Shown here in pieces: positions 1,665-58,140 of a stretch of 64,000 nt of DNA. This DNA comes from Pachysolen tannophilus NRRL Y-2460 (Eukaryota). The notes beneath the pieces were generated by a model. That model saw only the letters and a program-made list of their open reading frames with translations, ran no database searches and was not told the origin of the DNA. Within the stretch, counting starts at the first letter, position 1; each line of letters begins with the position of its first letter. The translations under genes and the position numbers were made by a program. Where the stretch lies: positions 734,348-798,347 of the forward strand of contig KV454011.1 in the NCBI GenBank assembly GCA_001661245.1. Reading direction: 5' to 3'.

Positions 1665-2897
1665 TTAATATTCAAATTCAAATTCGTATATTCTATCTGT
1701 AATACCGTTTGTTTCATGCTTTAAATAAGATTTTACACATTCACCCCATCTATCAACTCCTTTATAATCTCTAATTTCACCTTTAATTCCATCAATGGCA
1801 TCACATAAATCTTGTCCTAAATTTTCTTGATTTCTTATAGTTGTTAATGGAGTCACATATGTCTTAACAAGCAACATGTTAGTTCTAGTCTTTGGTAACC
1901 TTATAAACATTTGCTTTTCAGTCCTGAAAAAAACCTTGTTAAAATCAACAGTTGCTGGGTTTAATATTTTTTGTCTTGGTTGAATTGTCTTCGAACTCAT
2001 TTCATGTTCTGGATCAGTATAAGAGATAAAATAAAAAAATCTTGGAATTTTTGCAATTTGTATAAACCAATTATTTCTAACAATATATGAAGATGGTTTT
2101 AAACGATCAAAAAATTTGTTCATTGATATTTGTAATCTCAGAAAATATCCAGGAACAGGTTCATGAATTGTTGATATAGGCTTATTAAATATATCAGTAC
2201 TATCTAAACCACCAGGTGCACATATAGCACCACCTCTATGAACGTATTCATTGGGATAAACACTAGAATCATTGTTATTCTTTATTAAAAATACAAAATC
2301 TTCAGTAATTGTACAATTTAAAAGTTTAAGTAATTCATAAACTGATAATTTTAAATCTGAAATCGGTAAAAACTCTTTTCTTATCGAATTATATATATAT
2401 TCCTCCTTACCTTTAATTTGATAAAAATATTTTGGATACCGTTTTTGTAGATATACCAATACATAATGATAAAACTCTCTTATTGACTCACTAGAACTTT
2501 CATGGTAAAATATAGCAAATTCAGGACATTTTTCTGCTATTTTAGCTCTGATATTTGTCATTTTTAAATAATTTTTATCAATTATGAAAAGATCATTTGA
2601 AGGAAGATTACGTATCCCCATAGATAACCTATAATCTTTATTTTTTTGTAAAAAAGGTCTAAACACACTAGGCTCGGCTTTCTTATAATCAAAGGAATCT
2701 GGAACTGGTGTAACCTCAGGTATAGCATCATCATCAACAACATTATCATCATTTGTATATTTTGTACCTAACTTTTTTTTCTGATAAGCTTTTTTATATT
2801 GGGGTAACTTGGTTCTACAATACGGTATAAATTTATAGACCAAATACGACAAAGAGCTCACAAAGCTCAAGTATATCAATATCAAATTCATCTCCAT
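1665..2897 (-). CDS. DUF3445 (haem-dependent oxidative N-demethylase alpha-subunit-like / HRQ family) protein with N-terminal membrane anchor, paralogue 1
   Basis: Motifs RPF..YRLSMGI, YLQKRYP, IHEPVPGY, RNNWFIQ, FRTEKQ..RLPKT; colinear similarity to 6998..8209. Confidence 0.75.
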   Translation of the reverse strand: MEMNLILIYLSFVSSLSYLVYKFIPYCRTKLPQYKKAYQKKKLGTKYTNDDNVVDDDAIPEVTPVPDSFDYKKAEPSVFRPFLQKNKDYRLSMGIRNLPSNDLFIIDKNYLKMTNIRAKIAEKCPEFAIFYHESSSESIREFYHYVLVYLQKRYPKYFYQIKGKEEYIYNSIRKEFLPISDLKLSVYELLKLLNCTITEDFVFLIKNNNDSSVYPNEYVHRGGAICAPGGLDSTDIFNKPISTIHEPVPGYFLRLQISMNKFFDRLKPSSYIVRNNWFIQIAKIPRFFYFISYTDPEHEMSSKTIQPRQKILNPATVDFNKVFFRTEKQMFIRLPKTRTNMLLVKTYVTPLTTIRNQENLGQDLCDAIDGIKGEIRDYKGVDRWGECVKSYLKHETNGITDRIYEFEFEY

Positions 2898-3126
2898 TTT
2901 CTTTTATTTATTCCATACTACAACATCACTATTACTATAATTCTAAAATTGATAAAACTCAGATAAGAAAAGAACCCATTATATATAACTAATTATTTTT
3001 TCACTATCTTCCCCGAAGAAAAAGAAAAACAAAAAAAAAAAAAAACATAATTACCAAAGGCAGAAAATGTAACATAAGAACAATAACAACAACAGCATGA
3101 TAATGTTAAGAATATTATTATTATTT

Positions 3127-4169
3127 TTATAAAAGAGTTTCGCCTAATGCACATCTTGCGATAGCACACCCTACTCTAACTGTATCGAGAACATGGGTTT
3201 CATTTAAAGCTAAAGATGGGTTAGTTTCTACAACATCTAATGCGGCTAAGTTACCAGTGGCAGCAACTTCTTCCACTATGAATAAACCTTCTCTTAAAGT
3301 TAACCCATCTTTGACAGGGGTACCTGTTGCTTGGACAAATAAAGGATCGATAGCATCGACGTCGTATGAAACATGGACTGGTCTATTATTTTCAGGATTA
3401 ATTGCTTTCAATGCCATTTCAACAACTTTACCAATTCCGTACTTGTCTACATGATACATTGAAAATGCAGTAATACCTAAATCTTTTAAAATTTTTTTTT
3501 CTCCCTTGTCAACATCTCTTAATCCAATATATGCAATTCTATCAGCACGTAAATTTGGTCTCAACCATTTGAAATGAGGCGGCCATGATTCTTTATCTAA
3601 TCCCATAACAAATGAAACCGGACAACCATGCAAGTTCCCACTTTCTGTTGTTGAAATTGTGTTTATATCCAGATGGGCATCAATCCATAAGAGACAGGCA
3701 TCTGGTTGAGCTTCGAAAAACCCACTAACTGTTCCTATTGCAATGGAATGATCACCACCAATTGTTAAAGGTAAAGTATTTTTTAAAGCAGCAGTCTTTA
3801 CAGCATCATGAATTCTTTGTGAAGCCAAACTAACCATGTTTGGTCTCTTGACAATACCATGAACATCCGACAGATCTTTCTTCAAACCTAACAAATCAAG
3901 ATCTTTTAAAGGCTCATCTATTGAAGTGGTCCAACCTAATTCTTCCAACTGTGATTGTAAACCTGCATCTAATAAATGTTGTGGACCTTCTTCAACACCA
4001 GATTTTGGTTGCCCCCCATCAAAAGGAGCCAAGATAAGTGTGATTTTTCTACTTGGATGAAACTTGTAAGAATCAACAACTATCAATTAGTTAGCATACA
4101 ACAAACTATAAGTATATATAGGTATTACCATTATTATCATTATAATTATTACTTACTTGATGTTTGCAT
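3127..4169 (-). CDS. CAR1: Arginase; exon 1 4169-4157, intron 4156-4080, exon 2 4079-3127
   Basis: GGDHS, DAHx[21 protein letters not shown] motifs. ATGCAAACATCAA|GTAAGT..TGCTAAC..TAG gives in-frame MQTSIVDSYKF. Confidence 0.95.
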
Positions 4170-4843
4170 TTTTTCTTTTCTTTTCTTTTCCTTTCTTTTT
4201 GTTTTCGTTTTTGGTTAATTTTATTATCAGACAAAATTCAACCTTCCAAGACTTAATTTAAAAAGAAATCAGATATTATTTATACTTTACAAATACTATC
4301 CATCAACTATTGGTGAAATCGGTACCTATCAACTTTAATGGAAACTATTTTAATTCCTCTACTGGGGAAATCACTTCTTTTAATTTATAGAAAAACAACG
4401 GCAACTAATAGAGAGCTCTCTTGGAGAGGAAAACAAGTACAAAATTTAAAGGGAAAAATTAAAGAGAAATCGTAAGCGACTGCAAGCGATCTTAAGCTGC
4501 CGCTGCTCACCGCCCATAAAAAAAAGCAGGTGACCGGGTACACTACCCGCCTGTCTACAAGCCAATAATATCACATAATATTAACAAGTAACACGTTTAA
4601 ATAAAATATACCCTACACTAAGCTTTTTATTAATACAACACAAACACTAAATACGTAGATAGTAATAATATATATATTTATTTATTTTTATAGATTTGAC
4701 TTATATAGATACAAGCATTGCACTTTGGCCCCAAAAAAAAACACAAAAACAAAAACAAGATTTGTGAGATTTAAATGCATAACCATAACCAAGACAAACT
4801 AAAAACAAATTTTGCTTTCACCTCTTTTTACCTCAAAATCTTT

Positions 4844-6693: not shown

Positions 6694-6997
6694 TAAGGTA
6701 ATCTCTTTCTATCAAAAATAATATTGAATTAAGAATCAATTGATTTAATAATAAAAGAATAACTTATATGATTCAAGTTATAATTTAATCTGCTAGCCGC
6801 TTAAACTTGATTTTATTTTGATTCAATTGCTTCTAAAAACAAAACAAAAAAAAAAAAAAAATCAAATTCCGATAACAATTCCGAGGTAGGATTCGGTCGG
6901 TTGTTTGGTCGGTCAATAAGTCCGTGTGACTTGAAAAAGACTTTATTCACTCTGGATTATCTGTCTATATATTGTTCTATTTGTATTTTATATTTAG

Positions 6998-8209
6998 TTA
7001 TCTGGTAAAGACGAAATCTTTAACTTCAGTTGTAGCTCCATTAGATTGTCTTTTCATATATGCCTTTACAGCCTCCCCCCATTTAATTTTGTTTTTGTAT
7101 ATTGCTAAATCATCCGGTAATCCATCGATTGCATTACATAACACTTCACTCATATTTTCTTCTTCTCTTAATTTTATCAATGGAGTGAAATAAGTCTTTA
7201 TTGACATGACAACCAGCTTTGTTTTAGGTAATCTTGTTAAAACTTGTCGTTCAGATCTTAAAAAGACTTTATTAAAATCCAAAAATTCCGGTTTTAATTT
7301 TTCGATTTTGGAAATATCTTGACCCGGTTTACCATGATTCAAACCAAGATCATGAATTTTATCATGGGTTTGTATGGACCAATTATTTCTAACCACGTAC
7401 TGACTTGAGTTAATTCTATTGAAAAATTTATTCATTGCTAATTGTAATTTTTCAGTATATTGTGGTACCGGTAAATGTATTGAAGTAAGTGGGCTTCCTA
7501 ATAATTTTTTAGGATTGAAACCTGCTGGGAATAAGAAATTCCCACCTCTCAAGATATATTCTTCATCTTTTTCATTTTTTAAAAGAATAACAAAATCATC
7601 TTCAATGTTTCTACCTAAAATGGATAATAAATCTATAACATCATCAACAGAATTTGATTTCTTGGGGAAACTTTCTTCTCTAATTTGGTTATAAACAACC
7701 CCTTCACTCTTTTCATGAAAAATCATTGGATATCTTTTAACCAAGAAATCAACCACATAATCGTACCACTCTCTTATAGCAGGATGACAAACTGCTTCAC
7801 AAAATACAACTTGATCTCTGTTTTCTTCAAGCAAAGTAGCTCTTACATTGGTCTTTATCAAGTATTTTTTATCAATTATAAAATGATCCTCAGCTTCTAA
7901 TCTTCTAATTGCCATTGTCATCTTATAAGTACCATTTTTCATTGGTCGATATTTTACTTCTTCCTCTTGTTCCCAATCAAAGTCGGGATCTACCGCTGTA
8001 ATATTAGGAGCCTCGTATAGTTTTGATTGGTATAGCAATCCAGACAGTTCGTGTGAGTTCTTTCTGCTACTGCTACTAATACTACCACATAAACGATTCC
8101 ATATTTTGAAGCATACAATAATCAAAGTCGGTATAAGCAAAACTTGAATCGCAATTGCAAAAATATTTGATAAAATAAAGTTTTTATTACTCTCCCTAAA
8201 ATTGGGCAT
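6998..8209 (-). CDS. DUF3445 (haem-dependent oxidative N-demethylase alpha-subunit-like / HRQ family) protein with N-terminal membrane anchor, paralogue 2
   Basis: YRP..YKMTMAI, FPAGFNP, IHLPVPQY, RNNWSIQ, LRSERQVLTRLPKT. Confidence 0.8.
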   Translation of the reverse strand: MPNFRESNKNFILSNIFAIAIQVLLIPTLIIVCFKIWNRLCGSISSSSRKNSHELSGLLYQSKLYEAPNITAVDPDFDWEQEEEVKYRPMKNGTYKMTMAIRRLEAEDHFIIDKKYLIKTNVRATLLEENRDQVVFCEAVCHPAIREWYDYVVDFLVKRYPMIFHEKSEGVVYNQIREESFPKKSNSVDDVIDLLSILGRNIEDDFVILLKNEKDEEYILRGGNFLFPAGFNPKKLLGSPLTSIHLPVPQYTEKLQLAMNKFFNRINSSQYVVRNNWSIQTHDKIHDLGLNHGKPGQDISKIEKLKPEFLDFNKVFLRSERQVLTRLPKTKLVVMSIKTYFTPLIKLREEENMSEVLCNAIDGLPDDLAIYKNKIKWGEAVKAYMKRQSNGATTEVKDFVFTR

Positions 8210-12735: not shown

Positions 12736-14268
12736 TTAGCGCCTTTTAGCTTCTTCTCTTTCTTTGACTCTTTGGAATATAATCTTGACCATTTCGTTTC
12801 CCAACTTGTTGGCCTCCAGCAACATGGGTGCAAAAAATCTTTGAGTTTCTTCAAACTGCTGTCTATAGAGATTATAATCTCCGTAAGATACAACATTTGA
12901 CCAGTTTCTTGCAGCTAAGGTAAACTCCAAATCATCTTGTCTGAAGCTTGTATCACTTATGGCGACATTTAAGCACTCTTCTAACAAATTTGGAGAACAA
13001 AACAAATATTCAGTGACTCCTAAAAATATTCTAAAAAGCTATATTTGAACAAAATGAAAAATTTTTTTTTTTTTTGAAGTAAATAAGTTAGTAACTATAA
13101 GTTATTATTAATTTGAAAATTGGGTTCAATAAATACTTACTGGTGTTGAACAAATGATATGATCGTAAGGCACAATGTCCAACTTACTCCAACTATCAAC
13201 TATTCCCAACAATGAAAGATGTGAATTAGGCTGCCTTCCTTCCGGAGGCTCTTTATTTAAAGAAAACTGTTGTAACAAATCATCATCTAATAATAACTCA
13301 TAGTTATTATCCAAATGTCCAAAAACTTTTTCTCTAGCACCTAAAACTCTTTTCCGTAACTCTTCTCCTTTACCTTGGATCATTAAAGTAAATAATTCGG
13401 TAACAGAATTAGCATACTGTAATATTTGTTCATGAGCTGAAGGATTTGTAATAGCTAAACCAGCATATACATGCCATTTATTTGAATAAATTCTCAATGA
13501 AATGTTAATCTTGGCATTTTCTAATCCCCCAATCCATCTTTTAGCTTCCCATGGATATTCTTTTGTAGCATGCCACGCCACACCCATACTCAAGAATGCT
13601 GCATGTGTTAATGCCTGGGTATCAGCAGTTATCTTATCATGTTCTTTAGCTGTAAGATAAACCTTCTTGGAATTCAAACACGACATGAGTGCATCTACAA
13701 ATTGTCTAGATTCTTCAGAGTATGATCTATGATCAATTATTACTAAAGGTTGACCGGCAGTATTTACCTTTGGACCATGAAGGGAATGAACAGAAATTAT
13801 TTCAACATCTTTTGGTAAATATTTCTCAAAAGCTGCAACTTCCGGGGCTTTACAAGAGGTCTGACCACCAACTATAGCACCAAGTTTAGTAGACTCTCCA
13901 TAAAGAGAAACAACTTTACCAATTGATTCAGCTTCAACGCTATAAATAATGTAATCAGAACATCTTGATACTTGATGTCCATTTTTAAGAATTGTGAAAT
14001 TTTCATCACAGTATTTTTGTTTTGATTCTTCAAATGTTTCTTCTCTATCACATCCAACAACACTTTATTTTATAAAAATTCATAGATGTTAGGTCATGCC
14101 AGTTTTATACAAATTTTGAACATACATATATACTTACTTCCATCCTGATTCAGTAAACCTCCTAGCATACAAAAGACCCATATCCCCTAGGCCAATGATA
14201 CCTATAGTCTTTGTCGACTTCCATAAGGTCACTTGCTCTTTGGATGCTTGTTTCCCAATAAAGCCCAT
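12736..14268 (-). CDS. TYR1: Prephenate dehydrogenase; exons 14268-14138, 14062-13141, 13038-12736
   Basis: IGIIGLGDMG Rossmann motif, GGQTSCK, HSLHGP, HDKITADTQ, NKWHVYAGLAI, ICSTP|LFRIFLG. Both introns restore the frame. Confidence 0.93.
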
Positions 14269-14715: not shown

Positions 14716-16203
14716 TTACAATAAACCAATATAATCATCAATTTTTTCTTCTATGATACCATCTTTTTGCTCGCGAAGATCTAACCATGTCACATTTTTG
14801 AATTCATTTTCACTTTCTTCTTGTTCGGACTTAGCAGACTCCGTGGACTCCTTCTTGTAAACTTTCAGGACAATTTCCGGTATACATTCATCAACACATA
14901 ATAAGCATATAGCATCATATCCACCAGCACCAGGTACTACACCACCCAAGCACCCTATTAAGTTATTACAATTATTAAGCAAGACAGTTTGCTGTGTAGG
15001 CTCTATTTCAGCACCTGTTTCATTTGTTAGCAATCTCAAATTATGACGAATTTTCGAGATAGAATTTATTATCATTAACAATGGGCTAATATCCACTTTA
15101 TTATCGACACTGTTCAAAATCTTGTTTGCAGATTTTTTACTCAAATATGTTATCAAATCATTATAATAAGCAGGTTCATTAATGGATATTTTTTGTAAAG
15201 TTGCTAATGCTTCCACGAGTTCCATATTTCCATGATTTAAATCTGTGAAAACTTGTAATGCATAATCTGGATTTGATTTTTTCCAATCCAAAACTTTTGA
15301 AACTAATTTAGGAGTATTGGAACCCCCACAAATATCACCCATTAATAATCTAATCTTTGGCGGTAAACAACATTGATCTGTTACAATATTCCAATCAGTT
15401 TCCAAAACTACTTTCCGTAATCTTTGAGAATATTCAAGAATAGAAGTTTTGGATTCATCACTGGATATTAAATCTGTTATCAAGTCTGGTTTGAATCTAC
15501 GATAAACAATCGAGCCAAACGTTGCACTTGCAACATCAAAACCAGAACCAATTTTCTTTTGGGCAATACAATGTGAGACTTGTGAAAGGTTATGGATTAA
15601 TTTTTTATCATTATGATCATTCAATTTCAAATTTTTTTGGAAAACACTTAGCAAAGAAGCTGTTAAAACTGTCACTAAGCCTGCACTTGAACCTAATCCT
15701 GTCTTTGCAACTTTAGTAATTGGTTTTGAATGATATAAAAATTTCTTGCTTCCATTATCTGATATTTTTAAAACAGTATTTTCCTGTGAATGGTAACCCA
15801 GATCAGAAAAAATTAAAACTTTGATTTCAAAATTTGATTCAAAATTCTTACCGATAGCCACATCGAAAAAACATAAAATTGTATAAATTGTACTTTCAAC
15901 AAATGGGTTACACCTATTATTTTTCTCGATTAATTCAAGTTTTCCCCTGTTTTCCAACAAATTCCCAATCTCGTAAACCCATTCACCTTCCTGAAATTGA
16001 GGGGACTCAACAGTAATAATAGAATTCTCAAATAAAGGCGATGCTGTTGCTTTTACCACTGAATGCATTCTAGCAGAAAGAGCAACGACAAAGGAATTGT
16101 AAGTAGGGTCTAATACCAAATAGCCTCCAGCTAACAAAGCCTTACCCGGTGCACTGAAAGATCTCGATATAGAATGTTGACTAGACTGTTCCTGAGTCAT
16201 CAT
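14716..16203 (-). CDS. ERG8: Phosphomevalonate kinase
   Basis: SAPGKALLAGGYLVL, KTGLGSSA, GSGFDVA, VPGAGGYDA GHMP-kinase motifs. Confidence 0.97.
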   Translation of the reverse strand: MMTQEQSSQHSISRSFSAPGKALLAGGYLVLDPTYNSFVVALSARMHSVVKATASPLFENSIITVESPQFQEGEWVYEIGNLLENRGKLELIEKNNRCNPFVESTIYTILCFFDVAIGKNFESNFEIKVLIFSDLGYHSQENTVLKISDNGSKKFLYHSKPITKVAKTGLGSSAGLVTVLTASLLSVFQKNLKLNDHNDKKLIHNLSQVSHCIAQKKIGSGFDVASATFGSIVYRRFKPDLITDLISSDESKTSILEYSQRLRKVVLETDWNIVTDQCCLPPKIRLLMGDICGGSNTPKLVSKVLDWKKSNPDYALQVFTDLNHGNMELVEALATLQKISINEPAYYNDLITYLSKKSANKILNSVDNKVDISPLLMIINSISKIRHNLRLLTNETGAEIEPTQQTVLLNNCNNLIGCLGGVVPGAGGYDAICLLCVDECIPEIVLKVYKKESTESAKSEQEESENEFKNVTWLDLREQKDGIIEEKIDDYIGLL

Positions 16204-20671: not shown

Positions 20672-20779
20672 TAACGTAAAAGTTACTTTTTGTCCAGAAA
20701 AGAAAAATAAACATAAAAAAGAAAGAAAAAAATAAAAGAAGAAGTATTAAAAGTAGAAATATAAAAGTAGAAAAAAATA

Positions 20780-21448
20780 NNNNNNNNNNNNNNNNNNNNN
20801 NNNNNNNNNNNNNNNNNNNNNNNNNNNNNNNNNNNNNNNNNNNNNNNNNNNNNNNNNNNNNNNNNNNNNNNNNNNNNNNNNNNNNNNNNNNNNNNNNNNN
20901 NNNNNNNNNNNNNNNNNNNNNNNNNNNNNNNNNNNNNNNNNNNNNNNNNNNNNNNNNNNNNNNNNNNNNNNNNNNNNNNNNNNNNNNNNNNNNNNNNNNN
21001 NNNNNNNNNNNNNNNNNNNNNNNNNNNNNNNNNNNNNNNNNNNNNNNNNNNNNNNNNNNNNNNNNNNNNNNNNNNNNNNNNNNNNNNNNNNNNNNNNNNN
21101 NNNNNNNNNNNNNNNNNNNNNNNNNNNNNNNNNNNNNNNNNNNNNNNNNNNNNNNNNNNNNNNNNNNNNNNNNNNNNNNNNNNNNNNNNNNNNNNNNNNN
21201 NNNNNNNNNNNNNNNNNNNNNNNNNNNNNNNNNNNNNNNNNNNNNNNNNNNNNNNNNNNNNNNNNNNNNNNNNNNNNNNNNNNNNNNNNNNNNNNNNNNN
21301 NNNNNNNNNNNNNNNNNNNNNNNNNNNNNNNNNNNNNNNNNNNNNNNNNNNNNNNNNNNNNNNNNNNNNNNNNNNNNNNNNNNNNNNNNNNNNNNNNNNN
21401 NNNNNNNNNNNNNNNNNNNNNNNNNNNNNNNNNNNNNNNNNNNNNNNN
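20780..21448. other. Assembly gap (N run)
   Basis: Run of N flanked by poly-A and (AT)n low-complexity sequence. Confidence 1.
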
Positions 21449-21450
21449 AC

Positions 21451-21487
<37 letters not shown>

Positions 21488-23796: not shown

Positions 23797-24528
23797 ATGA
23801 ATAATTCTAGGTTATCAAAGGAGATTTCAAAATTATTTAGATCAAAACCTGCATGTCTTCAAGATATTATATTACCATTAGAAGGTCAATCTTCAAATTT
23901 ATATTATTTAACAATTTATATAAAAGGTCCTGAACAAACACCTTATTATAATGGATTTTATAAAATATTAATTAAATTTCCAGAAAATTATCCATCAAGT
24001 CCACCAACACTGAGATTTCAAACAAAAATTTTTCATCCAAATATAAATTTTACTACTGGAGATGTTTGTGTTGATTTATTGAAAAAAAATTGGTCTCCAA
24101 ATAGAACAATAGATGATGTATTAGTAACAATAAGATGTTTATTAATAGAACCGAACCCTGAAAGTTCGTTGAATGATGAAGCAGGAAAATTGTTATTAGA
24201 AGATTATAATGAATTTGTTAAGACTGCTAAATTGATGACAAAAGTACATTCTTTAAAAAAAATTGAAGGTTATCAAGAATTAGAATTAGAAGAAAATAAA
24301 AATAATCAAGTTACAGAAGATAATATATCAGAAAATTTCCATTTGGACCATATTCAAGAGGAAAATACTGGTTTACAATCTAATAGTCTAGCTAATAATA
24401 ATGTCTTACAACCTTTGGGAAATGATAATTTGAATGTTATTAATAGTGGTGGAAGTACTGCTACAACTTCAAGTGTCACTGGTGATTTTCAAAAAACTAT
24501 TAGGCAAAAAAAGAAAAAACCGGTTTAA
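23797..24528 (+). CDS. Ubiquitin-conjugating E2 enzyme, UBE2S-like (C-terminal GLKRL in the -1 frame, ending 24539)
   Basis: GPEQTPY, TKIFHPNI..G.VC(active site)VDLLKK.W, TIRCLLIEPNPESSLNDEAGKLLLEDY..F.K.AKLMT.VH, which is the UBE2S signature. Confidence 0.85.
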   Translation: MNNSRLSKEISKLFRSKPACLQDIILPLEGQSSNLYYLTIYIKGPEQTPYYNGFYKILIKFPENYPSSPPTLRFQTKIFHPNINFTTGDVCVDLLKKNWSPNRTIDDVLVTIRCLLIEPNPESSLNDEAGKLLLEDYNEFVKTAKLMTKVHSLKKIEGYQELELEENKNNQVTEDNISENFHLDHIQEENTGLQSNSLANNNVLQPLGNDNLNVINSGGSTATTSSVTGDFQKTIRQKKKKPV

Positions 24529-26026: not shown

Positions 26027-28537
26027 TCATGAGTTATCTCTTCTAAATTTAAACCGTCCAAACTTCGATGTCGTACTCATACTATAAATGCTGTTATTAT
26101 CGCCGTTATGATCATCATTCAGCGAATTTGGAGGCTGGTGAACATTGAAACCCATCTCTTGATCACTGTGATTATTTAAATCCATTGACCTTTCCTTTTG
26201 TTCAGAATCATGATTTTCCATTTTTGATATCAAGGATAAAGCCACATCAGGTTTAATTCTCGTGAATAATGTATTTTTATATTGATTATAATAGTCCAGT
26301 GATGAATTTTTTAATAATAATACAGTTTGATTCAATTCAATAAAGGTACTATTCAATGATATGGCACTTGTTGGTGTATCAAGTTGTCTTGTTCCTCCGT
26401 TAAGTGTATTGACAATTGACTCCAAATATGATGTATCCAAGTCAAAATTTGAGATGGCTTCTTTTGTGATGGTATTATTTTCTTTTAACAATTTCAAGAA
26501 TTGGTCAGCTAACAAATCAAAAGATCTAAATAATAATAATCTCTTGATAGATGTTGGTAAATTATTGAAATTTGTATTAAACATCATTTCTAAGAACTCA
26601 CCAATATCTTTTATGAAAATATTAGGTTCTGTATTTAACTCTTTTGTCTGCCAATCCCAGTTGGCAAAATCAATTAAACCTTCAATCTTGGAATCAACCA
26701 TTTCAAATAACTTTGATTCTGCTTTTTTACGTAATTCTATGAATTTTTCATAAGATTTTAAAGTAATAGTCGTTAATGAATTTGATGGCAGTGATTGTAA
26801 AGAAATTAATTTCTCAAATTGACTTATTGAATTAGAAAAAAATTCTAAATTTATTAAATTTTGTGATATTTCTTCTTTTATAGTCGAATCTGTCTTCATT
26901 TTCAAATATTTAATGACAATCTGAATGAGAATGTTATCCAATGAATCTGCTAATATGTTATTTAAATCGTTCAAGTTATACATATAGTAATTATGAATAA
27001 ATTTAAAATGGTCATTGATAAATTGTCTGATTTGTATACAGGTCATTGGGTACAACGATGAAAATGGTAAAGTTTTTGGAAAACTTTCATCTGTATCTTT
27101 TGAAGGTTTATACCAGCTGACTGTAAGTATTCTTTTATATAAAGCAGCCTGGTTGATAATCATTGGCATTGAGTCATCTTCAGCTATAATTTCTTGGAAA
27201 TCTTTATTGAATTGTTCAAATCTTAATTTTGTAAACTTCTTATAGCACGCTATTAAAATCTTGTTTATATTATCCAAATTATAATTATAATTATCTAAAA
27301 CTTGAATGAATAACGCCATCAAATCTTTAAACTGATCTAAATCATTTAAAGTTTCCACTTTATGAGAAAGAAAATTGTTTAATGAAAGATTTAATTTGGA
27401 CATCAATGATTGATAAAGATCATTCAAATTCACTGTTGTTCTCAATTTGTAATTTGTCTTTCTACTTATTATTTGATCACTAATTAAAAATCCCAAAATA
27501 CTACTTATAAAACTTGATAATTCATCAAAGTTTTCAAAAGTTGATGTTGGCAAAGAATTTTTACGATGATATCCATTTTTTTGTTGAAGTTTCGGTTCAT
27601 TTTTAAATAAATCTGATATTAAACGATCACGTTTATTTAACCATTCTTTACTAAAATTTTCTCTTAAAATTTCTTCTTCGTTTAAAGTTTCAAATACTAA
27701 TAAACCATCATAAATTGGTTTCAAATCAATATTCACCAATCCAAATGGTTCAAAAGTAGCATGATCTCTAAGACTCAACTCTATAGCAGAATTTACTTTA
27801 AAATCTTTTAAATCAGGGTTTTCTTTCACGATATTTATCCAATTATTATTGATTTCAAGCATATTGCTAAACAAAGATTCTCCAATTGTCTTTAAATTTT
27901 TCTCTAAATTGGTTAACCATCTCTTGATATAATTTATAGATTCATCTTTAATCATTGATTGTAAAAAAGGAATAGAATTAAAAATTTTTTTCGTAAATTC
28001 GAAATTTTCAAAATATTCTTCATTAAAGTTAATATTTGATAAATCATCTAATAACTTCAACGCATTATAAAAATTTTTCTTTGAAATCAGATCAATGACT
28101 TTATTTGTTAATTCTAAAATTTGCAAACAAGATTGCAAAATATACATTGTTTCATTAATCTTATTATTTATTTTTTTATAATTGATTAAAATTGATTTCT
28201 TTGTCTTCAAATCAAATCCTGTTTTCTCCATTTCTTTATATATTAACAATATTTGTTCCGACAACTTGGAAGAATTCACTTTAATCTTATTAAAGCTCTC
28301 AATCGATTTAAGAATATCATTACCACTATGAAACGATAAATCTTCTACCGCGCCTTCTTTAGTTAAAGCAGTTTCTTCCAATTCGTTTAATAATTCATCT
28401 AGTTTATTTTCCTTGAGTGATTTTTTAATTATTGGAATTAATTGATCTATATAAGCATCTGTATTCAATATATCATGTGCAGTCCCACTACCACCACCAT
28501 CAGATAGCTTCTCCAATGCATTCCGTATTGTCGACAT
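26027..28537 (-). CDS. SEC15: Exocyst subunit Sec15
   Basis: 836 aa helical protein with YIDQLIPIIK, FYNALKLLDDL, DDSMPM, LPFSSLYPM, KIEGLIDFANWDW motifs. Confidence 0.9.
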   Translation of the reverse strand: MSTIRNALEKLSDGGGSGTAHDILNTDAYIDQLIPIIKKSLKENKLDELLNELEETALTKEGAVEDLSFHSGNDILKSIESFNKIKVNSSKLSEQILLIYKEMEKTGFDLKTKKSILINYKKINNKINETMYILQSCLQILELTNKVIDLISKKNFYNALKLLDDLSNINFNEEYFENFEFTKKIFNSIPFLQSMIKDESINYIKRWLTNLEKNLKTIGESLFSNMLEINNNWINIVKENPDLKDFKVNSAIELSLRDHATFEPFGLVNIDLKPIYDGLLVFETLNEEEILRENFSKEWLNKRDRLISDLFKNEPKLQQKNGYHRKNSLPTSTFENFDELSSFISSILGFLISDQIISRKTNYKLRTTVNLNDLYQSLMSKLNLSLNNFLSHKVETLNDLDQFKDLMALFIQVLDNYNYNLDNINKILIACYKKFTKLRFEQFNKDFQEIIAEDDSMPMIINQAALYKRILTVSWYKPSKDTDESFPKTLPFSSLYPMTCIQIRQFINDHFKFIHNYYMYNLNDLNNILADSLDNILIQIVIKYLKMKTDSTIKEEISQNLINLEFFSNSISQFEKLISLQSLPSNSLTTITLKSYEKFIELRKKAESKLFEMVDSKIEGLIDFANWDWQTKELNTEPNIFIKDIGEFLEMMFNTNFNNLPTSIKRLLLFRSFDLLADQFLKLLKENNTITKEAISNFDLDTSYLESIVNTLNGGTRQLDTPTSAISLNSTFIELNQTVLLLKNSSLDYYNQYKNTLFTRIKPDVALSLISKMENHDSEQKERSMDLNNHSDQEMGFNVHQPPNSLNDDHNGDNNSIYSMSTTSKFGRFKFRRDNS

Positions 28538-36581: not shown

Positions 36582-37661
36582 TCAATCTGTATCCATTCTA
36601 TCTTCACTAACAGATTCATCCAGTTTTTCTTGTTCTTCCTCCTTTGGCTTTGCTTCTTCTTTTTCTTCTTCTTTTACTTCTGTTTTTTCCTTCTTATCGC
36701 CACCATCTTTATTGTTGTTATCGTCGTTGTCATCATCTTCATCATCATCACCACCATCATTGTTGTCATCTGTTGATCTCTTATTTGAAACACTATCTAA
36801 TTTGTCTAACCATTGTTGGACGTCTTCGTCATCGTATTGGGTGAATGGAACCCCTTTACCAACAACAGCAATTGAAGTATTCTTAAAAGTCAATTCTCTA
36901 TCCTGTGATAAAGTATCTCTTAATGCATATAATCCTGCTTTAATCAAATTTTCAAAATTCTCTTCATCTTTAAAACTATCCAAATTTCTTTCTAAATAAG
37001 TCTTACCACCTTGAGATCTAGCACCGAGGGCTGAACCATAAAGTTCTACAACAGAACCACTTGGCGAGAATTCAAAAAGATGAGGCCCTGTTACATCATA
37101 TCCTGCAATAATAAGACCAACACCATAAGGTCTATTACCATATGATTGAGTATTTGCCTGTGCCTTATCAGCAATTGAATAAACTGCCTTTTCAGTAGCT
37201 AATGGTCTATTAAAAATCATCTTACTGGTCATTGCCTGTTGTCTCAAGTAATTGGAAAGAACTCTAGCATCTGGAGCTAATCCTGCTAAAGAACAACCCA
37301 AATGTTCATCAATTTTAATTATCTTTCTTTGATAAGAACCTAATTCTTCTAAATTTCTTTTAAGACCAAGTAATACTACATGATCTTTCCCACGAAGACC
37401 TATTGTTGCACTTCCTTGCTTTGTTGCCTCATTGGCATACTCCACTTGGAATAATCGACCAGTTGGAGAATAAGTGACTGGATCATTATCGTAATTATTT
37501 CTAAACTAAATTGATAAAAATTATGAAATAATATGAATTAATATTAAAAATTGTTAGTAAATTAAGAAAACTCAATTCCAATTAATTTTAACAAGTTTGT
37601 TTTTTTTTTTGTAAAAAAATAATCTGATATTTAACTCCCAATTATTATCAATGCTTACCAT
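36582..37661 (-). CDS. PRE5: 20S proteasome subunit alpha-6; exon 1 is the ATG only (37661-37659), intron 37658-37506
   Basis: Spliced MFRNNYDNDPVTYSPTGRLFQVEYA; RPYGVGL, GARSQGGKTYLER; GTAAGC..TACTAAC..TAG. Confidence 0.95.
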
Positions 37662-41162: not shown

Positions 41163-41741
41163 GAATAAATAAATTAAACTTGAATATTCTATTTCAAAGT
41201 AAAAGTAAAAAAAAAAAATAAAAATTAAAATGGGAAAATAGAAATTAAAAAAACTATTATATTGATTATAACTAATGATATAAACTTTTTGATCAATAAT
41301 TCAGAAACTAATAATTATATCAATAAATATATATTTATTATATAATTTATATATGCAGAACAAGATAGAAAAGAAGAACCACTATTAAGAACTCATTTAA
41401 AAATGAAGTTTAAATTGTATTTTGTTTTCCTAATTGGGAATCGTAATTTACACTTACTTAAAACGGAAATGTGCTATTTTAGGTAATAGTCTTTACTTTA
41501 ATAACGTAATGATTAAATAAATAAATAAATGAATGAATGAATGAATGAATGCATATATTGTAAAATAACCACATAAAGAGAATAAGGATAATCAATGGGT
41601 TTTGTTGGTTAATGGTATTCAAATATCTGATTTAAAAGCTTTTTGCTTTTCTATTAGACAGTACAAACAAGTAGTGATATTTTCGAAAATAAAAGTAAAA
41701 AAAAAAAAAATAAAGATAAAAAAAAAAAAAAAAAAAAGATA

Positions 41742-42488
41742 NNNNNNNNNNNNNNNNNNNNNNNNNNNNNNNNNNNNNNNNNNNNNNNNNNNNNNNNNNN
41801 NNNNNNNNNNNNNNNNNNNNNNNNNNNNNNNNNNNNNNNNNNNNNNNNNNNNNNNNNNNNNNNNNNNNNNNNNNNNNNNNNNNNNNNNNNNNNNNNNNNN
41901 NNNNNNNNNNNNNNNNNNNNNNNNNNNNNNNNNNNNNNNNNNNNNNNNNNNNNNNNNNNNNNNNNNNNNNNNNNNNNNNNNNNNNNNNNNNNNNNNNNNN
42001 NNNNNNNNNNNNNNNNNNNNNNNNNNNNNNNNNNNNNNNNNNNNNNNNNNNNNNNNNNNNNNNNNNNNNNNNNNNNNNNNNNNNNNNNNNNNNNNNNNNN
42101 NNNNNNNNNNNNNNNNNNNNNNNNNNNNNNNNNNNNNNNNNNNNNNNNNNNNNNNNNNNNNNNNNNNNNNNNNNNNNNNNNNNNNNNNNNNNNNNNNNNN
42201 NNNNNNNNNNNNNNNNNNNNNNNNNNNNNNNNNNNNNNNNNNNNNNNNNNNNNNNNNNNNNNNNNNNNNNNNNNNNNNNNNNNNNNNNNNNNNNNNNNNN
42301 NNNNNNNNNNNNNNNNNNNNNNNNNNNNNNNNNNNNNNNNNNNNNNNNNNNNNNNNNNNNNNNNNNNNNNNNNNNNNNNNNNNNNNNNNNNNNNNNNNNN
42401 NNNNNNNNNNNNNNNNNNNNNNNNNNNNNNNNNNNNNNNNNNNNNNNNNNNNNNNNNNNNNNNNNNNNNNNNNNNNNNNNNNNNNNNN
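41742..42488. other. Assembly gap (N run)
   Basis: Run of N between poly-A tracts. Confidence 1.
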
Positions 42489-42600
42489 AATAAAAAAAAA
42501 AAAAATAAAGATGAAAATGAAAATGAAAATAAAAATATAAGTAGAATAATGTCTCTTTTCTGTTTCTGCCAAATGGCTTTCCAAATTTTTTGGTTTCTTA

Positions 42601-43530
42601 TCAATAAATTTTTTTCTTTTCATCCAAAGATAATTCACCAGCACCTGTATTTGTAACAACTAATAAGCCACCTACAATACTCAAAGTCTGGAAGAATTCA
42701 TATTTCAAAAAATCTCTTCTTGGATCTCTATTGCTATAAGTCCAATAATGATTAACAGAAGTATTATAAACTGCCAATAAGAAGACTAATACAATAGCAG
42801 CAAATTTAGTTTTATAACCAACAACGATTGAGATACTAGATGTGAATCCTATGAAAACCACCAAGAATCTCATAAGTGACCAATTTGAATTAAATGCAAA
42901 GCCTGCAAATAATACAATAACCAATACTCTACCAGCCAATAATATATATTTTTTGTTATCCTTTCTTTCAATCATTGGTAAACCTGGCATTAAAAGAGCT
43001 CTCTTATCACGAACTAAACTATCTGCAAAAGCCAACAATAAGCCACCCAATACACTCAAATTTCTTAATAAAAACAGAGAATCAAACCATAATCCATAAA
43101 CAAGACCTTGGAAAAATACAATAAGACATAATGCAATACATGCAACATCAGTCTTCTTTCTCAATATTAACATTGTAGCAGCAGATGACATCACAATAAC
43201 ATTTGTAAATAAAAATACTACAACTAGCCAATACCACATATGCCTGTAGTTCCATAAATAAAAAACTTGATCTTTCCATTGTGTAACTATTCTAGTTGCA
43301 TCCTCATAAAAAGTTGCAACTATAAGAAATCTACCAATTGCAGGAACATAAGGTTTAACTGGTCCAGAATAATTATCAATCGTTGATTCAACCACTTCAG
43401 TAAAATTCTCAAATTTCTCAATGTATGATTTATCTATTACAACCGGACCCAAATGCATTTTATTACTATTGACATTATTGCTGTTATTTTGATTAAAATT
43501 GTAGTTGTTGATTTTTCCACGATATGACAT
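42601..43530 (-). CDS. ERV29: SURF4-family ER cargo receptor
   Basis: KPYVPAIGRFLIVATFYED, RNLSVLGGLL, RDFLKYEFFQTLSIVGGLL, C-terminal DEKKKIY dilysine motif. Confidence 0.96.
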   Translation of the reverse strand: MSYRGKINNYNFNQNNSNNVNSNKMHLGPVVIDKSYIEKFENFTEVVESTIDNYSGPVKPYVPAIGRFLIVATFYEDATRIVTQWKDQVFYLWNYRHMWYWLVVVFLFTNVIVMSSAATMLILRKKTDVACIALCLIVFFQGLVYGLWFDSLFLLRNLSVLGGLLLAFADSLVRDKRALLMPGLPMIERKDNKKYILLAGRVLVIVLFAGFAFNSNWSLMRFLVVFIGFTSSISIVVGYKTKFAAIVLVFLLAVYNTSVNHYWTYSNRDPRRDFLKYEFFQTLSIVGGLLVVTNTGAGELSLDEKKKIY

Positions 43531-46624: not shown

Positions 46625-48079
46625 TTAAAATAACCATGACAAACCACGTCTAGCAAGGACTAATGTAGGTGTGGTATTGGTGGTAGAAGACGAGGCCGTT
46701 GCTGACGATGAGTAGATACTACTTGAAGTGGCAGTAATTGAAGTTGATGTTGTAGCTGCTGCGGATGAAGAAGCAGATGTTACCGATGTTGCTGGTGTTG
46801 TTGATGTTGCTGGAGCGGAGACGACTGAGGAAGAGGCCGATGTTGATGAAGTTGGAACTGAGACAACTGATGACAGAGCTGAAGATGAAGCTGAAGATGA
46901 AGCTAATACTGGAGCTGCTGACGAAGCAGACGACAAAGCTGAAGATGAAGCGAATACTGGAGCTGCTAACGAAGCTGATGACAAAGCTGACGACAAAGCT
47001 GATACTGGAGCTGAGGCGTATGATGACAAAGCTGAAGACAAGACTGAGGCTGGAGCTGAGACATATGATGACAAAGCTGAAGATGAAGCTGAGGTAGTAC
47101 CGTTAGTGAAACTGAATGAGGTAGTAACAACCAGGGTATCAGAAGAAGTAGTTGTATCAGCAGCATCTGGGTCAACTGCTGATGAAGCATCAGTAGTAGA
47201 GGCATCAGTAGTAGCAGCGGCATCAGTAGCAGAAGCAGAAGTTGAAGTTGTAGCTGGATCATCACTAGAAGTAGCTGAATCGTCACTAGAAGTTGGATCA
47301 GCTGAAGTTGTACTTTCAGCTAAAGCAGCGGAACTAGAACCTGAAGCAGTGGAAGTAACAGTGACTGTTTCGTATTGGGTAGTAACAAAATCAGTAGATG
47401 CTGAAACAACTGTCACAACCGAACCTGCAGAATCTGTGACGGTAATATCAGTAGTGAAAGGAATTGTACTAGTAACTGCAGTGGTAATGTAAGATGTTAC
47501 ATCGGAATCATCTGAGGAAGCAGCACAGTTGCTTTCAGTAACAGTAACGGTAACAGTTGAAACAGAATCTGAAGTTGTGGTTCCTTCAGCGGCTGAAGTA
47601 GTGGCATCTGCTGAAGTAGTTTCGTCAGCAGCAGAAGTAGTAGCAGCTGCAGTAGCAGAAGAAGAGTCACTTGCTGCTGCATCTGTGGAAGCGGAGTCAT
47701 CAGTGCTAGTTCCCAGAGTACTATCGGTTGAAGTTGGTGTTGCAGAAGTGGAAGAAGCTTCTGCTGAAGTAACAGTAGCAACTTCAGCGGATGAAGTAGT
47801 TGAACCATCAGAAAGAGTAATGTAAACAATATCAGTCGAAGTATATGTTGTAGTTTGGTCTGAAGATGTAGATGAAGAATTGAGAAACTTCGTTGAACCA
47901 GCAGCTACTACTGAAGACGAGTTTGTAAATTCACGACGTTGGATTATGTGATCTTGCAAACCACGAATGTCCAAGTAATCATCTATACCACGGAAAGCAG
48001 CCAAGTTACCTAATGGTAAAGCGACAGTTAATTCGGTGGCTAAAGCCATTAATGATAAAATTGAAATTGATGAACGCAT
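46625..48079 (-). CDS. Secreted Ser/Thr/Ala-rich cell-wall mannoprotein-like protein
   Basis: Signal peptide, dibasic RR site, N-glycosylation sequons (NSS, NGT), S/T/A-rich body with internal repeats. Confidence 0.75.
   Translation of the reverse strand: MRSSISILSLMALATELTVALPLGNLAAFRGIDDYLDIRGLQDHIIQRREFTNSSSVVAAGSTKFLNSSSTSSDQTTTYTSTDIVYITLSDGSTTSSAEVATVTSAEASSTSATPTSTDSTLGTSTDDSASTDAAASDSSSATAAATTSAADETTSADATTSAAEGTTTSDSVSTVTVTVTESNCAASSDDSDVTSYITTAVTSTIPFTTDITVTDSAGSVVTVVSASTDFVTTQYETVTVTSTASGSSSAALAESTTSADPTSSDDSATSSDDPATTSTSASATDAAATTDASTTDASSAVDPDAADTTTSSDTLVVTTSFSFTNGTTSASSSALSSYVSAPASVLSSALSSYASAPVSALSSALSSASLAAPVFASSSALSSASSAAPVLASSSASSSALSSVVSVPTSSTSASSSVVSAPATSTTPATSVTSASSSAAATTSTSITATSSSIYSSSATASSSTTNTTPTLVLARRGLSWLF
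46860..47095 (-). repeat. Intragenic minisatellite encoding SSALSS(Y/A)xxAP-type units
   Basis: Recurrent GACAAAGCTGAAGA / CTGGAGCTG units on the + strand. Confidence 0.75.
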
Positions 48080-55879: not shown

Positions 55880-57295
55880 CTATTTAGACCAATTCCAATA
55901 GACTTCAAGAGATTGCGGTAAATCTTCATCAATCTGACAAACTTCTGTATAAGTAGTTCCTTTCAATCCTCTAATAATACGCTCATGATAATCGTTAACT
56001 TCGCAACTAAACCCAGGCCCATCACTACAGTTTGCTAATGGGATAACCGAGTCATTTAAAATAATCCTAGCATAGGCTTTGCCATCAGTACTACACTTCA
56101 ATCTCTCTACGACTACCTTAGCACCCATTGGGACAATTTGAGAACATTTGAAAGGAGAGAAAAAATCAATTTGATCAACACTTAAATGACTCAGCGATTG
56201 CAACAACCCCATTGCAGCAACAACAGGTGTGATATCAGTATCGTGTGAAAATGAAAAGAAAAGTTTGCCAACTTCACTTGGACCTTCTTTCAATAATGTT
56301 GCAGTAGCGTTAGCATAGTTTGAACCTATAGCAACAGCTAATGAATGTCCGTAACTCGCCCTATAATAAAAATCCAAATCTCTCTGGTAACCAAATGCTA
56401 CCCATTCATCTTTAGTAAAAAGTTTACACCATACAGGGTCTCCTCTAACGTTTAATTCAAACCCACATAAAGACATCATTTGGAAAGCATCGTCTGCATC
56501 TATATTAAAACCAGGTGATAATCTGTTTAATCTATTTGCGGCTTTCTCTAGGTATTTAGTTGAATATTTAGAAAGAAGCTCATCATTTTCAGAATAATCA
56601 AAAGGTTTACAACTTGTTGCTGCTGTTAAAGTATTTGCACCTTGCAGTGAACTTTCAGGAAGCAGTTGTAAGGACAATAAACTATCGTTAGCACTCTTTG
56701 CTAAAAACCCCTTAGCAAAACTCTTAGCTGTATCAACAACTCTTTCTTGACCTGCAGAAAAAACTGGTAATACCTCATTTTGATCATCAAAAAGATGACC
56801 ATATTTCTCTCTAAATTTTAAACCAACTTTATAAGAATCTTCTAATCCATTATATGGCCCAGAATGCGTTTCAAGTTCGTAATCCTCATCCGTAGCAAAA
56901 TATTTATAATCTTTGATAAATGCCAACGGCCCAGTATACGTCTCTACATTTGACAATTTCTGCAACTTGTTGAGTAGTTTTTCAAAGCGTTTTCCACTAT
57001 CATAAGTTGGATATCTTTCACCATGTCTCATGAGCAAATGAACTTGATCAACTACACAGTCTTCAGGTGTTTCAGGGCCAACGCCATAACCATGATGCGA
57101 AACATATGGCAGTAACGCTCCACCAAATCTCAATACATTGAATTGTTCCGTAGACGTTTGAGGATATGGTTTGCCGCCAACACTTCCAAGTACGCTACTA
57201 CTCAAAGGTTTTGTAGTTAAAGTAGATATCGATAAGAGTACTATCAATAAAGCAGCTATTGATAGAACGGTAACATTCAATGAACCCACAATCAT
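55880..57295 (-). CDS. Histidine acid phosphatase/phytase (Pho5/Pho3 family) with N-terminal signal anchor
   Basis: RHGERYP and SFSHDTDI catalytic motifs, C..GPGFSC. First ATG at 57295. Confidence 0.92.
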   Translation of the reverse strand: MIVGSLNVTVLSIAALLIVLLSISTLTTKPLSSSVLGSVGGKPYPQTSTEQFNVLRFGGALLPYVSHHGYGVGPETPEDCVVDQVHLLMRHGERYPTYDSGKRFEKLLNKLQKLSNVETYTGPLAFIKDYKYFATDEDYELETHSGPYNGLEDSYKVGLKFREKYGHLFDDQNEVLPVFSAGQERVVDTAKSFAKGFLAKSANDSLLSLQLLPESSLQGANTLTAATSCKPFDYSENDELLSKYSTKYLEKAANRLNRLSPGFNIDADDAFQMMSLCGFELNVRGDPVWCKLFTKDEWVAFGYQRDLDFYYRASYGHSLAVAIGSNYANATATLLKEGPSEVGKLFFSFSHDTDITPVVAAMGLLQSLSHLSVDQIDFFSPFKCSQIVPMGAKVVVERLKCSTDGKAYARIILNDSVIPLANCSDGPGFSCEVNDYHERIIRGLKGTTYTEVCQIDEDLPQSLEVYWNWSK

Positions 57296-57520: not shown

Positions 57521-58140
57521 ATGACTTCATTTATAAGGAACTTGAATGGAATTCGAGTTCGAGTTCCAGCTCGGGATATTAAGAGATTTTATAGCATTCA
57601 ATCCTTAAAATATAAATATCAACCACAAGTTGTAAGTGTTAAGATGAAATGACTAATGGCAATTGACTAAACTAACTAAGCAATCTTTAATAGTACATTC
57701 ACGTTGTTGATAAATCTACAGCAAATGTTTCTTTTTCTGCAAAACCACATTCAGTACCAATTGGTCGGATTGATGGTATTGACGGTAGTAATTTAACAAA
57801 TGTGAAGATAGAATCGGACTTGTTCAAAGAAAATAAGAAATTCTTGGAGATTTTACATCGATTAATTGGCAATAGAGTTCAAGAGGATTTCGCTTATAAA
57901 GTTGAAGCAGGAACTCATGCCAATAGTTTTTTACCTATTTACGATTTCAGACTGCCACCAGCTTATGGTCGAACACCTGAAGTGTATAATGTATTTGGAT
58001 ACGTACATGTCAATGAGAGTGGGGAGATGGTTCCTGGAAGTTACGAAATTAATCAAATGTATAGGTTGTGCAACCAAACTGATGGTATTGTACATTTGAG
58101 TGACTTCTTATACGAAGAAATTCAATCTATGATAGCATAG
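57521..58140 (+). CDS. Conserved fungal hypothetical protein, probably mitochondrial; exons 57521-57631, 57694-58140
   Basis: Arg-rich presequence-like exon 1; GTAAGT..ACTAAC..TAG intron in frame; F.EN..FL..LH, D.R.PP.YGR.P...FG, GSY....MYRL motifs. Confidence 0.7.

Follow-up and report, generated by a model that had tools for sequence, protein, structure and literature searches.

The meaning of the codon CTG was analysed in a stretch of 64,000 nucleotides from the yeast Pachysolen tannophilus NRRL Y-2460 (GenBank assembly GCA_001661245.1, contig KV454011.1, positions 734,348 to 798,347; hereafter the window). CUG in the genes of this window is very probably decoded as alanine, in accordance with NCBI translation table 26. 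Among the six decodings that were calibrated against ordinary codons, Ala is the single one not rejected by the CTG sites of the window, and the CTG sites taken together do not fit a decoding as Leu, Ser or Thr. Where conservation is highest among the scorable sites, the CTG codons are found in columns occupied by Ala or other small residues. A preliminary description of the sequence had proposed that all window CTGs be read as Ala, and this proposal is supported by the profile sums and their calibration. The reading is correct but already known, since tRNA analysis and mass spectrometry demonstrated this code in 2016.

One of the CTG codons is located in the metal-site motif of an arginase gene, which runs on the minus strand at positions 3127-4169 and matches the Pfam Arginase model with 232.1 bits and TIGR01229 with 345.0 bits when translated with table 26. 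The gene consists of a 13-base exon 1 (4169-4157, comprising the ATG at 4169-4167 and 10 further bases), a 77-base intron (4156-4080, with GTAAGT, a TGCTAAC branch site and a terminal TAG) and exon 2 (4079-3127). The motif, D-A-H-[CTG]-D-I-N, occupies positions 3661-3681. On the minus strand the sequence reads tgg att gat gcc cat ctg gat ata aac, which confirms the originally reported CTG codon at 3672-3670. It was also claimed that this CTG takes the place of an Ala, and the homologues bear this out: among 150 representatives the column contains A 110, G 17, T 7, P 5, C 4, S 3, N 1 and L 1. In solved arginase structures the equivalent position is occupied by Ala in the two closest chains and by Thr in the rat chains. 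Reading CTG as Ala would thus restore the canonical DAHADIN motif. With the NCBIfam model TIGR01229, the protein scores 345.0 bits with Ala, 344.1 bits with Ser and 341.0 bits with Leu. The single homologue with Leu in the motif column is P0225. A second CTG in the arginase gene, in the context KKD[CTG]SDV on the minus strand, is part of a variable loop.

A sequencing or assembly slip at the arginase CTG was considered and excluded, because Logan contigs from runs of two studies, X1 and X3 from one and X5 from a second, show no differing letters over the arginase stretch 3057-4658; the study of X5 may itself be the source of the window DNA. The sequencing runs listed include none made from RNA. 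This contig comparison left out positions 1884-2759 and most of 6921-8209, including the CTG sites of both HODM_asu-like/DUF3445 paralogues that are described below.

For a quantitative comparison, homologue sets for four families were collected from three database searches plus an exhaustive search of representatives. Profile hidden Markov models were built from the homologues alone, and the match-state emissions were evaluated at the 12 alignable CTG sites. Summed over these sites, Ala ranks first of the 20 residues, with a log-odds score of +2.3 bits; the corresponding sums are +0.1 for Thr, -1.5 for Ser, -3.1 for Gln, -5.5 for Val, -7.3 for Leu and -11.2 for Gly. A mean-BLOSUM62 column score, calculated for a partly different set of 12 sites, likewise is highest for Ala (-0.64), with -2.9 for Ser, -5.8 for Val, -6.1 for Thr and -6.6 for Leu. 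When this BLOSUM62 method was applied to subsamples of 12 sites, the true residue was recovered in 83-100% of the subsamples for 40 of 41 ordinary codons, the remaining one being GTC (36%). The tabulation of orthologous residues that the preliminary description had suggested as a check, carried out for these four families, gives Ala as the best residue over the 12 scorable sites.

The profile sums were calibrated by drawing 12 sites 5000 times from each class of ordinary codons in the same alignments. For the CTG sites, the observed differences are +9.6 bits between Ala and Leu (A-L) and +3.8 bits between Ala and Ser (A-S). Sites with Leu codons (TTR and CTH) have a mean A-L of -21.0 bits, with a 95% range of -31.7 to -9.9, and the observed +9.6 bits was reached in 0 of 5000 draws. 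Neither Ser codons nor Thr codons matched the observed A-S in any of their 5000 draws. With Val codons, a fraction of 0.0008 of the draws attained the A-L of the CTG sites, and Gly codons were never as low as this value. The Ala codons (GCN) span both observed values, which correspond to their 1.3th percentile for A-L and their 15th percentile for A-S.

The individual columns are of several types. The HODM_asu-like/DUF3445 paralogue at 6998-8209 (minus strand) contains a CTG at 7214-7216 in the context RLPKTK[CTG]VVMSIK (site HODM2-332), and its column in 35 homologues is dominated by Ala (A 27, S 4, L 2, C 1, G 1). This site, which the preliminary description does not name, favours Ala strongly, as does the arginase motif. 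The Pfam model PF11927 shows the same order, with 284.6 bits for Ala, 282.2 for Ser and 280.6 for Leu. The two Leu rows of this column, P0123 and P0144, are both assembly-derived proteins. Together with P0225 they may come from other CUG-Ala yeasts whose genes were translated under the standard code; mistranslated homologues of this kind, if present, would bias the column counts against Ala. The histidine acid phosphatase gene (55880-57295, minus strand) has a CTG at 57110-57112, in GGAL[CTG]PY (site 62), where 119 homologues show G 78, A 33, S 6, T 1, one gap and no Leu. The assignment of this site as Ala or small, made from the sequence, stands as far as a small residue is concerned, but the residue is mainly Gly. 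Similarly, for the CTG at 2139-2141 of the other DUF3445 paralogue (1665-2897, minus strand; PGYF[CTG]RLQ, site HODM1-253), the earlier preference for Ala or a small residue over Leu holds only in part: the column is variable and polar and contains no Leu, but it contains no Ala either (E 11, S 7, T 7, Q 5, N 3, K 1 and D 1 in 35 homologues). Variable, polar columns are also found at acid phosphatase sites 217 and 368, and variable columns at Sec15 sites 583 and 806. The two DUF3445 paralogues flank the arginase and metacaspase genes; among named species, Ogataea, Candida boidinii and Kuraishia have the homologues most similar to them.

Re-scoring of the window proteins with curated models points in the same direction, but the signal is weak, of low power and not decisive. 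Summed over 15 Pfam domain models, the scores are 2703.4 bits with Ala, 2696.6 with Ser and 2694.2 with Leu; for the 11 models scored under six decodings, they are 2158.8 (Ala), 2157.4 (Thr), 2155.4 (Val), 2151.7 (Ser), 2150.9 (Leu) and 2143.9 (Gly). The NCBIfam models for UbiB, the MgsA-type ATPase, ureidoglycolate lyase and the proteasome subunit change by at most 1 bit between the codes; the CTG sites of these genes lie outside the conserved model positions. The metacaspase gave no match in the NCBIfam re-scoring.

The further CTGs named in the preliminary description, in the E2, acid phosphatase, ERG8, DUF3445, SEC15 and TYR1 genes and in a hypothetical frame, are all CTG codons in the peptide contexts reported for them. 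Their preferences for a particular residue are less uniform. In the E2 S-like ubiquitin-conjugating enzyme, the CTG at 24010-24012 (plus strand; SPPT[CTG]RF, site 72) is aligned in all five printed alignments with the Gly of SPPKGYF in human UBE2S, the closest solved homologue. This agrees with the idea that Ala or a small residue fits better than Leu, but the Pfam model UQ_con favours Val (139.3 bits) and Leu (137.8) over Thr (137.0), Ala (136.9), Ser (136.3) and Gly (135.8), so that the site is ambiguous. For phosphomevalonate kinase, ERG8, with a CTG at 15799-15801 (minus strand; FSD[CTG]GYHSQ, site 135), a similar claim is retained in so far as Leu is disfavoured, but Ala and Ser are not separated: the whole-protein TIGR01219 scores, with both CTG sites changed together, are 376.6 bits for Ala, 376.5 for Ser and 374.2 for Leu. 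The CTG at 12817-12819 (minus strand; PML[CTG]EAN) belongs to exon 2 of the prephenate dehydrogenase gene TYR1, for which a Pfam search returned no model covering the CTG. This exon (13038-12736) is in a different frame from exon 1 and is preceded by a 102-base intron at 13039-13140 (minus strand) with GTAAGT, TACTAAC and TAG. Because both arginase and TYR1 are interrupted by introns, open reading frames (ORFs) defined from ATG to stop miss conserved N- or C-terminal portions of these proteins; in the arginase gene, the first ATG of the stop-to-stop frame 3127-4086 is found at 3837, and the conserved N-terminus is encoded upstream of it. Finally, the CTG at 57952-57954 (plus strand; DFR[CTG]PP) lies in a 148-codon frame, 57694-58140, to which a Pfam search assigned no match. 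This frame has no ATG until about codon 112, is situated between the acid phosphatase gene and the SPRY-CTLH gene, and is possibly a downstream exon.

Decoding of CUG as serine (table 12), either as in the CUG-Ser1 yeasts (Candida/Debaryomyces) or as in the CUG-Ser2 yeasts (Ascoidea/Saccharomycopsis), would place a Ser in the arginase motif. CUG-Ser yeasts far outnumber CUG-Ala yeasts, and many CTGs of the window occur in Ser/Thr-rich stretches, e.g. SSASSSA[CTG]SSVV, TDST[CTG]GTST and STSS[CTG]SSNK. In the profiles, acid phosphatase sites 217 and 368 and HODM1-253 fit slightly better with Ser than with Ala, and the Pfam scores of SURF4, Sec15_C, HODM1 and AAA_assoc_2 are 0.3-0.8 bits higher with Ser. 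At conserved columns, however, Ala outnumbers Ser by 110 to 3 in arginase, 27 to 4 at HODM2-332 and 33 to 6 at acid phosphatase site 62, and both the A-S difference, which real Ser codons did not attain in any draw, and the Pfam sum of the 15 models are against Ser. In addition, CUG-Ser1 species appear in the acid phosphatase list with identities of 35-39% only, below Pichiales and Phaffomycetales, and the public copies of the window proteins carry Ala, not Ser. Serine decoding is thus highly improbable.

Several observations weigh against alanine decoding, or against its being the whole explanation. The orthologue columns all derive from only four protein families (five ORFs), and the observed A-L lies at just the 1.3th percentile of true Ala codons. 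Three of the 12 CTG sites (25%) are in strongly aliphatic columns, compared with 9.5% of GCN codons and 52% of the other Leu codons. One of the aliphatic columns is that of acid phosphatase site 211 (CTG at 56663-56665, minus strand), a counter-example with I 67, V 44, L 3, T 3, P 1 and A 1 in 119 homologues. In Sec15, the CTG at 28088-28090 (minus strand; VID[CTG]ISKK, site 150) had been regarded as a weak exception, but it is rather a real counter-example in a conserved Leu column, with Leu in four of four database homologues and in the Saccharomyces cerevisiae Sec15 chain 5yfp_F (5/5); the Pfam model EXOC6_Sec15_N gives 149.6 bits for Leu, 148.0 for Ala and 147.8 for Ser. The weakly hydrophobic column of a further Sec15 site (26297-26299, minus strand; NSS[CTG]DYY, site 747) has L 3 and Y 1 in four homologues, with Lys in S. 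cerevisiae. The Sec15 columns are thin, comprising four database homologues besides the window's own copy; the Protein Data Bank (PDB) added the S. cerevisiae protein and a Drosophila fragment that does not usefully span the CTG sites. Of the 15 Pfam models, four (E2, Sec15_N, CCHL and EMC4) prefer Leu to both Ser and Ala by 0.4 bit or more, and Methyltrn_RNA_3 does so by 0.1 bit. With the 11 models, the lead of Ala over Thr is just 1.4 bits. With 1.3 CTGs per ORF, the window has fewer than the average of about 3.2 per predicted protein published for P. tannophilus, and the share of ORFs with at least one CTG (25 of 37) is clearly lower than the published 80%. The published figures are 16,824 CUG codons in 5,288 predicted proteins, 80% of which contain at least one (PMC4937558). 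The low density in the window may reflect local variation or a difference between the gene sets. Lastly, ARAGORN detected no tRNA gene in the 64-kb window, and hence not the tRNA that defines the code, and a search with Rfam had no match to any family there.

It follows from the aliphatic sites that the CTG positions are less Ala-typical than ordinary GCN positions. A dual decoding, with CUG read mostly as Ala and partly as Leu by analogy to Ascoidea asiatica, could explain the mixture of column types; the excess of aliphatic columns and the low percentile of A-L would both agree with it, and dual CUG decoding is described for that other yeast (PMC6041473). However, the sample consists of 12 sites from four families, and the codon table offers a simpler cause. 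Because CTG is one base away from the Leu codons TTG and CTH and from the Val codon GTG, it is plausible that most new CTG codons for Ala appear where an aliphatic position can accept Ala. Moreover, mass spectrometry of P. tannophilus NRRL Y-2460 assigned Ala to 97.2% of 907 CUG positions with full fragment-ion support, and ambiguous translation was reported at just 8 positions (PMC4937558). A partial decoding as Leu therefore appears very unlikely. That the aliphatic excess (3/12 against 9.5%) is real rather than sampling noise is itself unlikely; were it real, it would indicate an ongoing one-step flow from Leu (TTG, CTH) and Val (GTG) codons to CTG, with a measurable Leu-to-Ala bias, or, alternatively, a slight remaining incorporation of Leu at CUG, owing to which such sites stay tolerable.

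The standard code, which would give the arginase an unusual Leu beside a metal-binding His and make the remaining sites ordinary substitutions, finds support in the hydrophobic columns at Sec15-150, Sec15-747 and acid phosphatase site 211 (Ile or Val in 111 of 119) and in the 0.4-2.3 bits by which the E2, Sec15_N, CCHL and EMC4 models prefer Leu to Ala, while the rarity of CTG, usual in any AT-rich yeast, is uninformative. Leucine decoding is nevertheless scarcely credible. At the motif, just one arginase out of 150 has Leu, and at site 62 none of the 119 acid phosphatases does; the profile sum of Leu is 9.6 bits below that of Ala, a difference never attained by real Leu codons; and 25% of the CTG sites are in strongly aliphatic columns, against 52% for the other Leu codons.

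Alanine decoding is also in agreement with the public record and with the relatives of the window genes. Three database proteins that correspond to the window itself read Ala at 10 of 10 CTG positions (P0001 4/4, P0157 4/4 and P0121 2/2) and are otherwise identical to the standard-code translation over the compared residues, which implies that the public record has already been translated with a CUG=Ala table. The Ala residues in these copies follow from the code that the depositor selected and are no independent proof of decoding. The nearest named homologues of the window proteins are from Ogataea, Komagataella, Kuraishia, Candida boidinii, Brettanomyces, Ambrosiozyma and Wickerhamomyces, with identities of 40-49%; CUG-Ser1 species follow at lower values. 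The closest database matches overall show 47-50% identity, and the best named ones belong to Pichiales and Phaffomycetales. This ranking, as judged from sequence identities, is consistent with a sister lineage of the Pichiales that has few annotated genomes, but does not amount to a phylogenetic placement. In the publications, the Ala clade of Pachysolen, Nakazawaea and Peterozyma is placed as a deep sister of the Leu2 clade/Pichiales, to which precisely the genera listed above belong (Krassowski et al. 2018, PMC5951914), and the order Alaninales has CUG=Ala among its diagnostic characters (Groenewald et al. 2023, PMC11182611); the membership of the CUG-Ala clade as stated in the preliminary description agrees with both accounts.

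For the window DNA, the tRNA mechanism and the decoding at the peptide level are inferred from the literature. The tRNA(CAG) of P. tannophilus is reported to carry G3:U70 and A73 and to group with Ala tRNAs (Muhlhausen et al. 2016, PMC4937558), and the same authors propose that tRNA-Leu(CAG) was lost first and that the freed codon was then captured. If this applies to the window, as it would for the nuclear genes of Alaninales yeasts in general (table 26), the ancestral tRNA-Leu(CAG) would have been lost, and CUG would be read by a tRNA with anticodon CAG that bears the alanine identity elements G3:U70 and A73 and has a short variable arm. Such a tRNA would be charged by alanyl-tRNA synthetase, which takes no account of the anticodon.

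The gene content of the window is that of ordinary budding-yeast housekeeping genes, as judged from 37 ORFs and their Pfam matches. The window encodes, besides the arginase and the two HODM_asu-like/DUF3445 paralogues, a metacaspase, an ABC1 kinase, an Arf protein, TYR1, ERG8 and the E2 enzyme; Sec15, lipoyl synthase, ureidoglycolate lyase, a SURF4/Erv29 protein, cytochrome c haem lyase and an Mgs1-type ATPase; and a patatin lipase, zuotin, the histidine acid phosphatase, the SPRY-CTLH protein and S-adenosylhomocysteine hydrolase. The G+C content is 29.2% of all 64,000 positions, or 29.9% when only the 62,583 called bases are counted; this very low value fits Pachysolen within the CUG-Ala clade, the G+C content of P. 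tannophilus being near 30%. CTG codons are scarce and account for 47 of 13,200 codons in the window ORFs of at least 150 amino acids; the 37 listed ORFs contain 48 CTG codons, with at least one in 25 of them.

A few ORFs of the window require care. The Ser/Thr-rich ORF 46625-48079 (minus strand, 484 amino acids) is without a Pfam match, and its repeats give rise to two spurious ORFs, the CTG-packed 46765-47097 (plus strand, 24 CTGs) and, in another frame, 47497-47808 (minus strand, 16 CTGs); the CTGs of these two should not be counted as coding. Runs of N are present at 20780-21448 (669 bases), 41742-42488 (747 bases) and 46116 (1 base). The two long runs fall within ORFs 20747-21454 and 41619-42623, so that the corresponding proteins consist mostly of unknown residues. 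In the proteasome alpha-type ORF 36582-37232 (minus strand), the Pfam match starts only at model position 71, and the N-terminal part is therefore probably encoded in an upstream exon.

In practical terms, table 26 is needed for every gene of the window; otherwise 25 of the 37 ORFs, about two thirds, carry wrong Leu residues, and one such error would fall inside the metal-site motif of the arginase. A single 64-kb window with 12 scorable sites is enough to reject Leu, Ser and Thr decoding, and this result is a helpful calibration when fragmentary yeast assemblies are scanned for their genetic code.

Three known variations of CUG decoding can be compared with the situation in the window. The stochastic Ser/Leu decoding of Ascoidea asiatica (PMC6041473) has a likeness in the mixed columns of the window, of which 3 of 12 are aliphatic and the rest small or polar. 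It differs in that the window, which contains no tRNA gene, offers no evidence of two competing tRNAs, while the Pachysolen proteome is reported to contain Ala at 97.2% of the supported positions. The CUG-Ser1 and CUG-Ser2 codes (table 12) concern the same codon, reassigned in budding yeasts via capture by a non-Leu tRNA(CAG), and share with the window the rarity of CTG and its frequent occurrence in variable polar stretches. In contrast, the conserved CTG columns of the window contain Ala and not Ser, and ordinary Ser codons do not reproduce them (0/5000). With the CUG-Ala code, as it is described in the cited publications (PMC4937558, PMC5951914, PMC11182611), no qualitative difference was found, although the CTG density of the window is lower than the published genome mean. 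The likeness to this code includes CTG codons in conserved Ala columns, an AT-rich window with few CTGs, the sister group Pichiales as the nearest named relatives, and public translations of the same DNA that use Ala.

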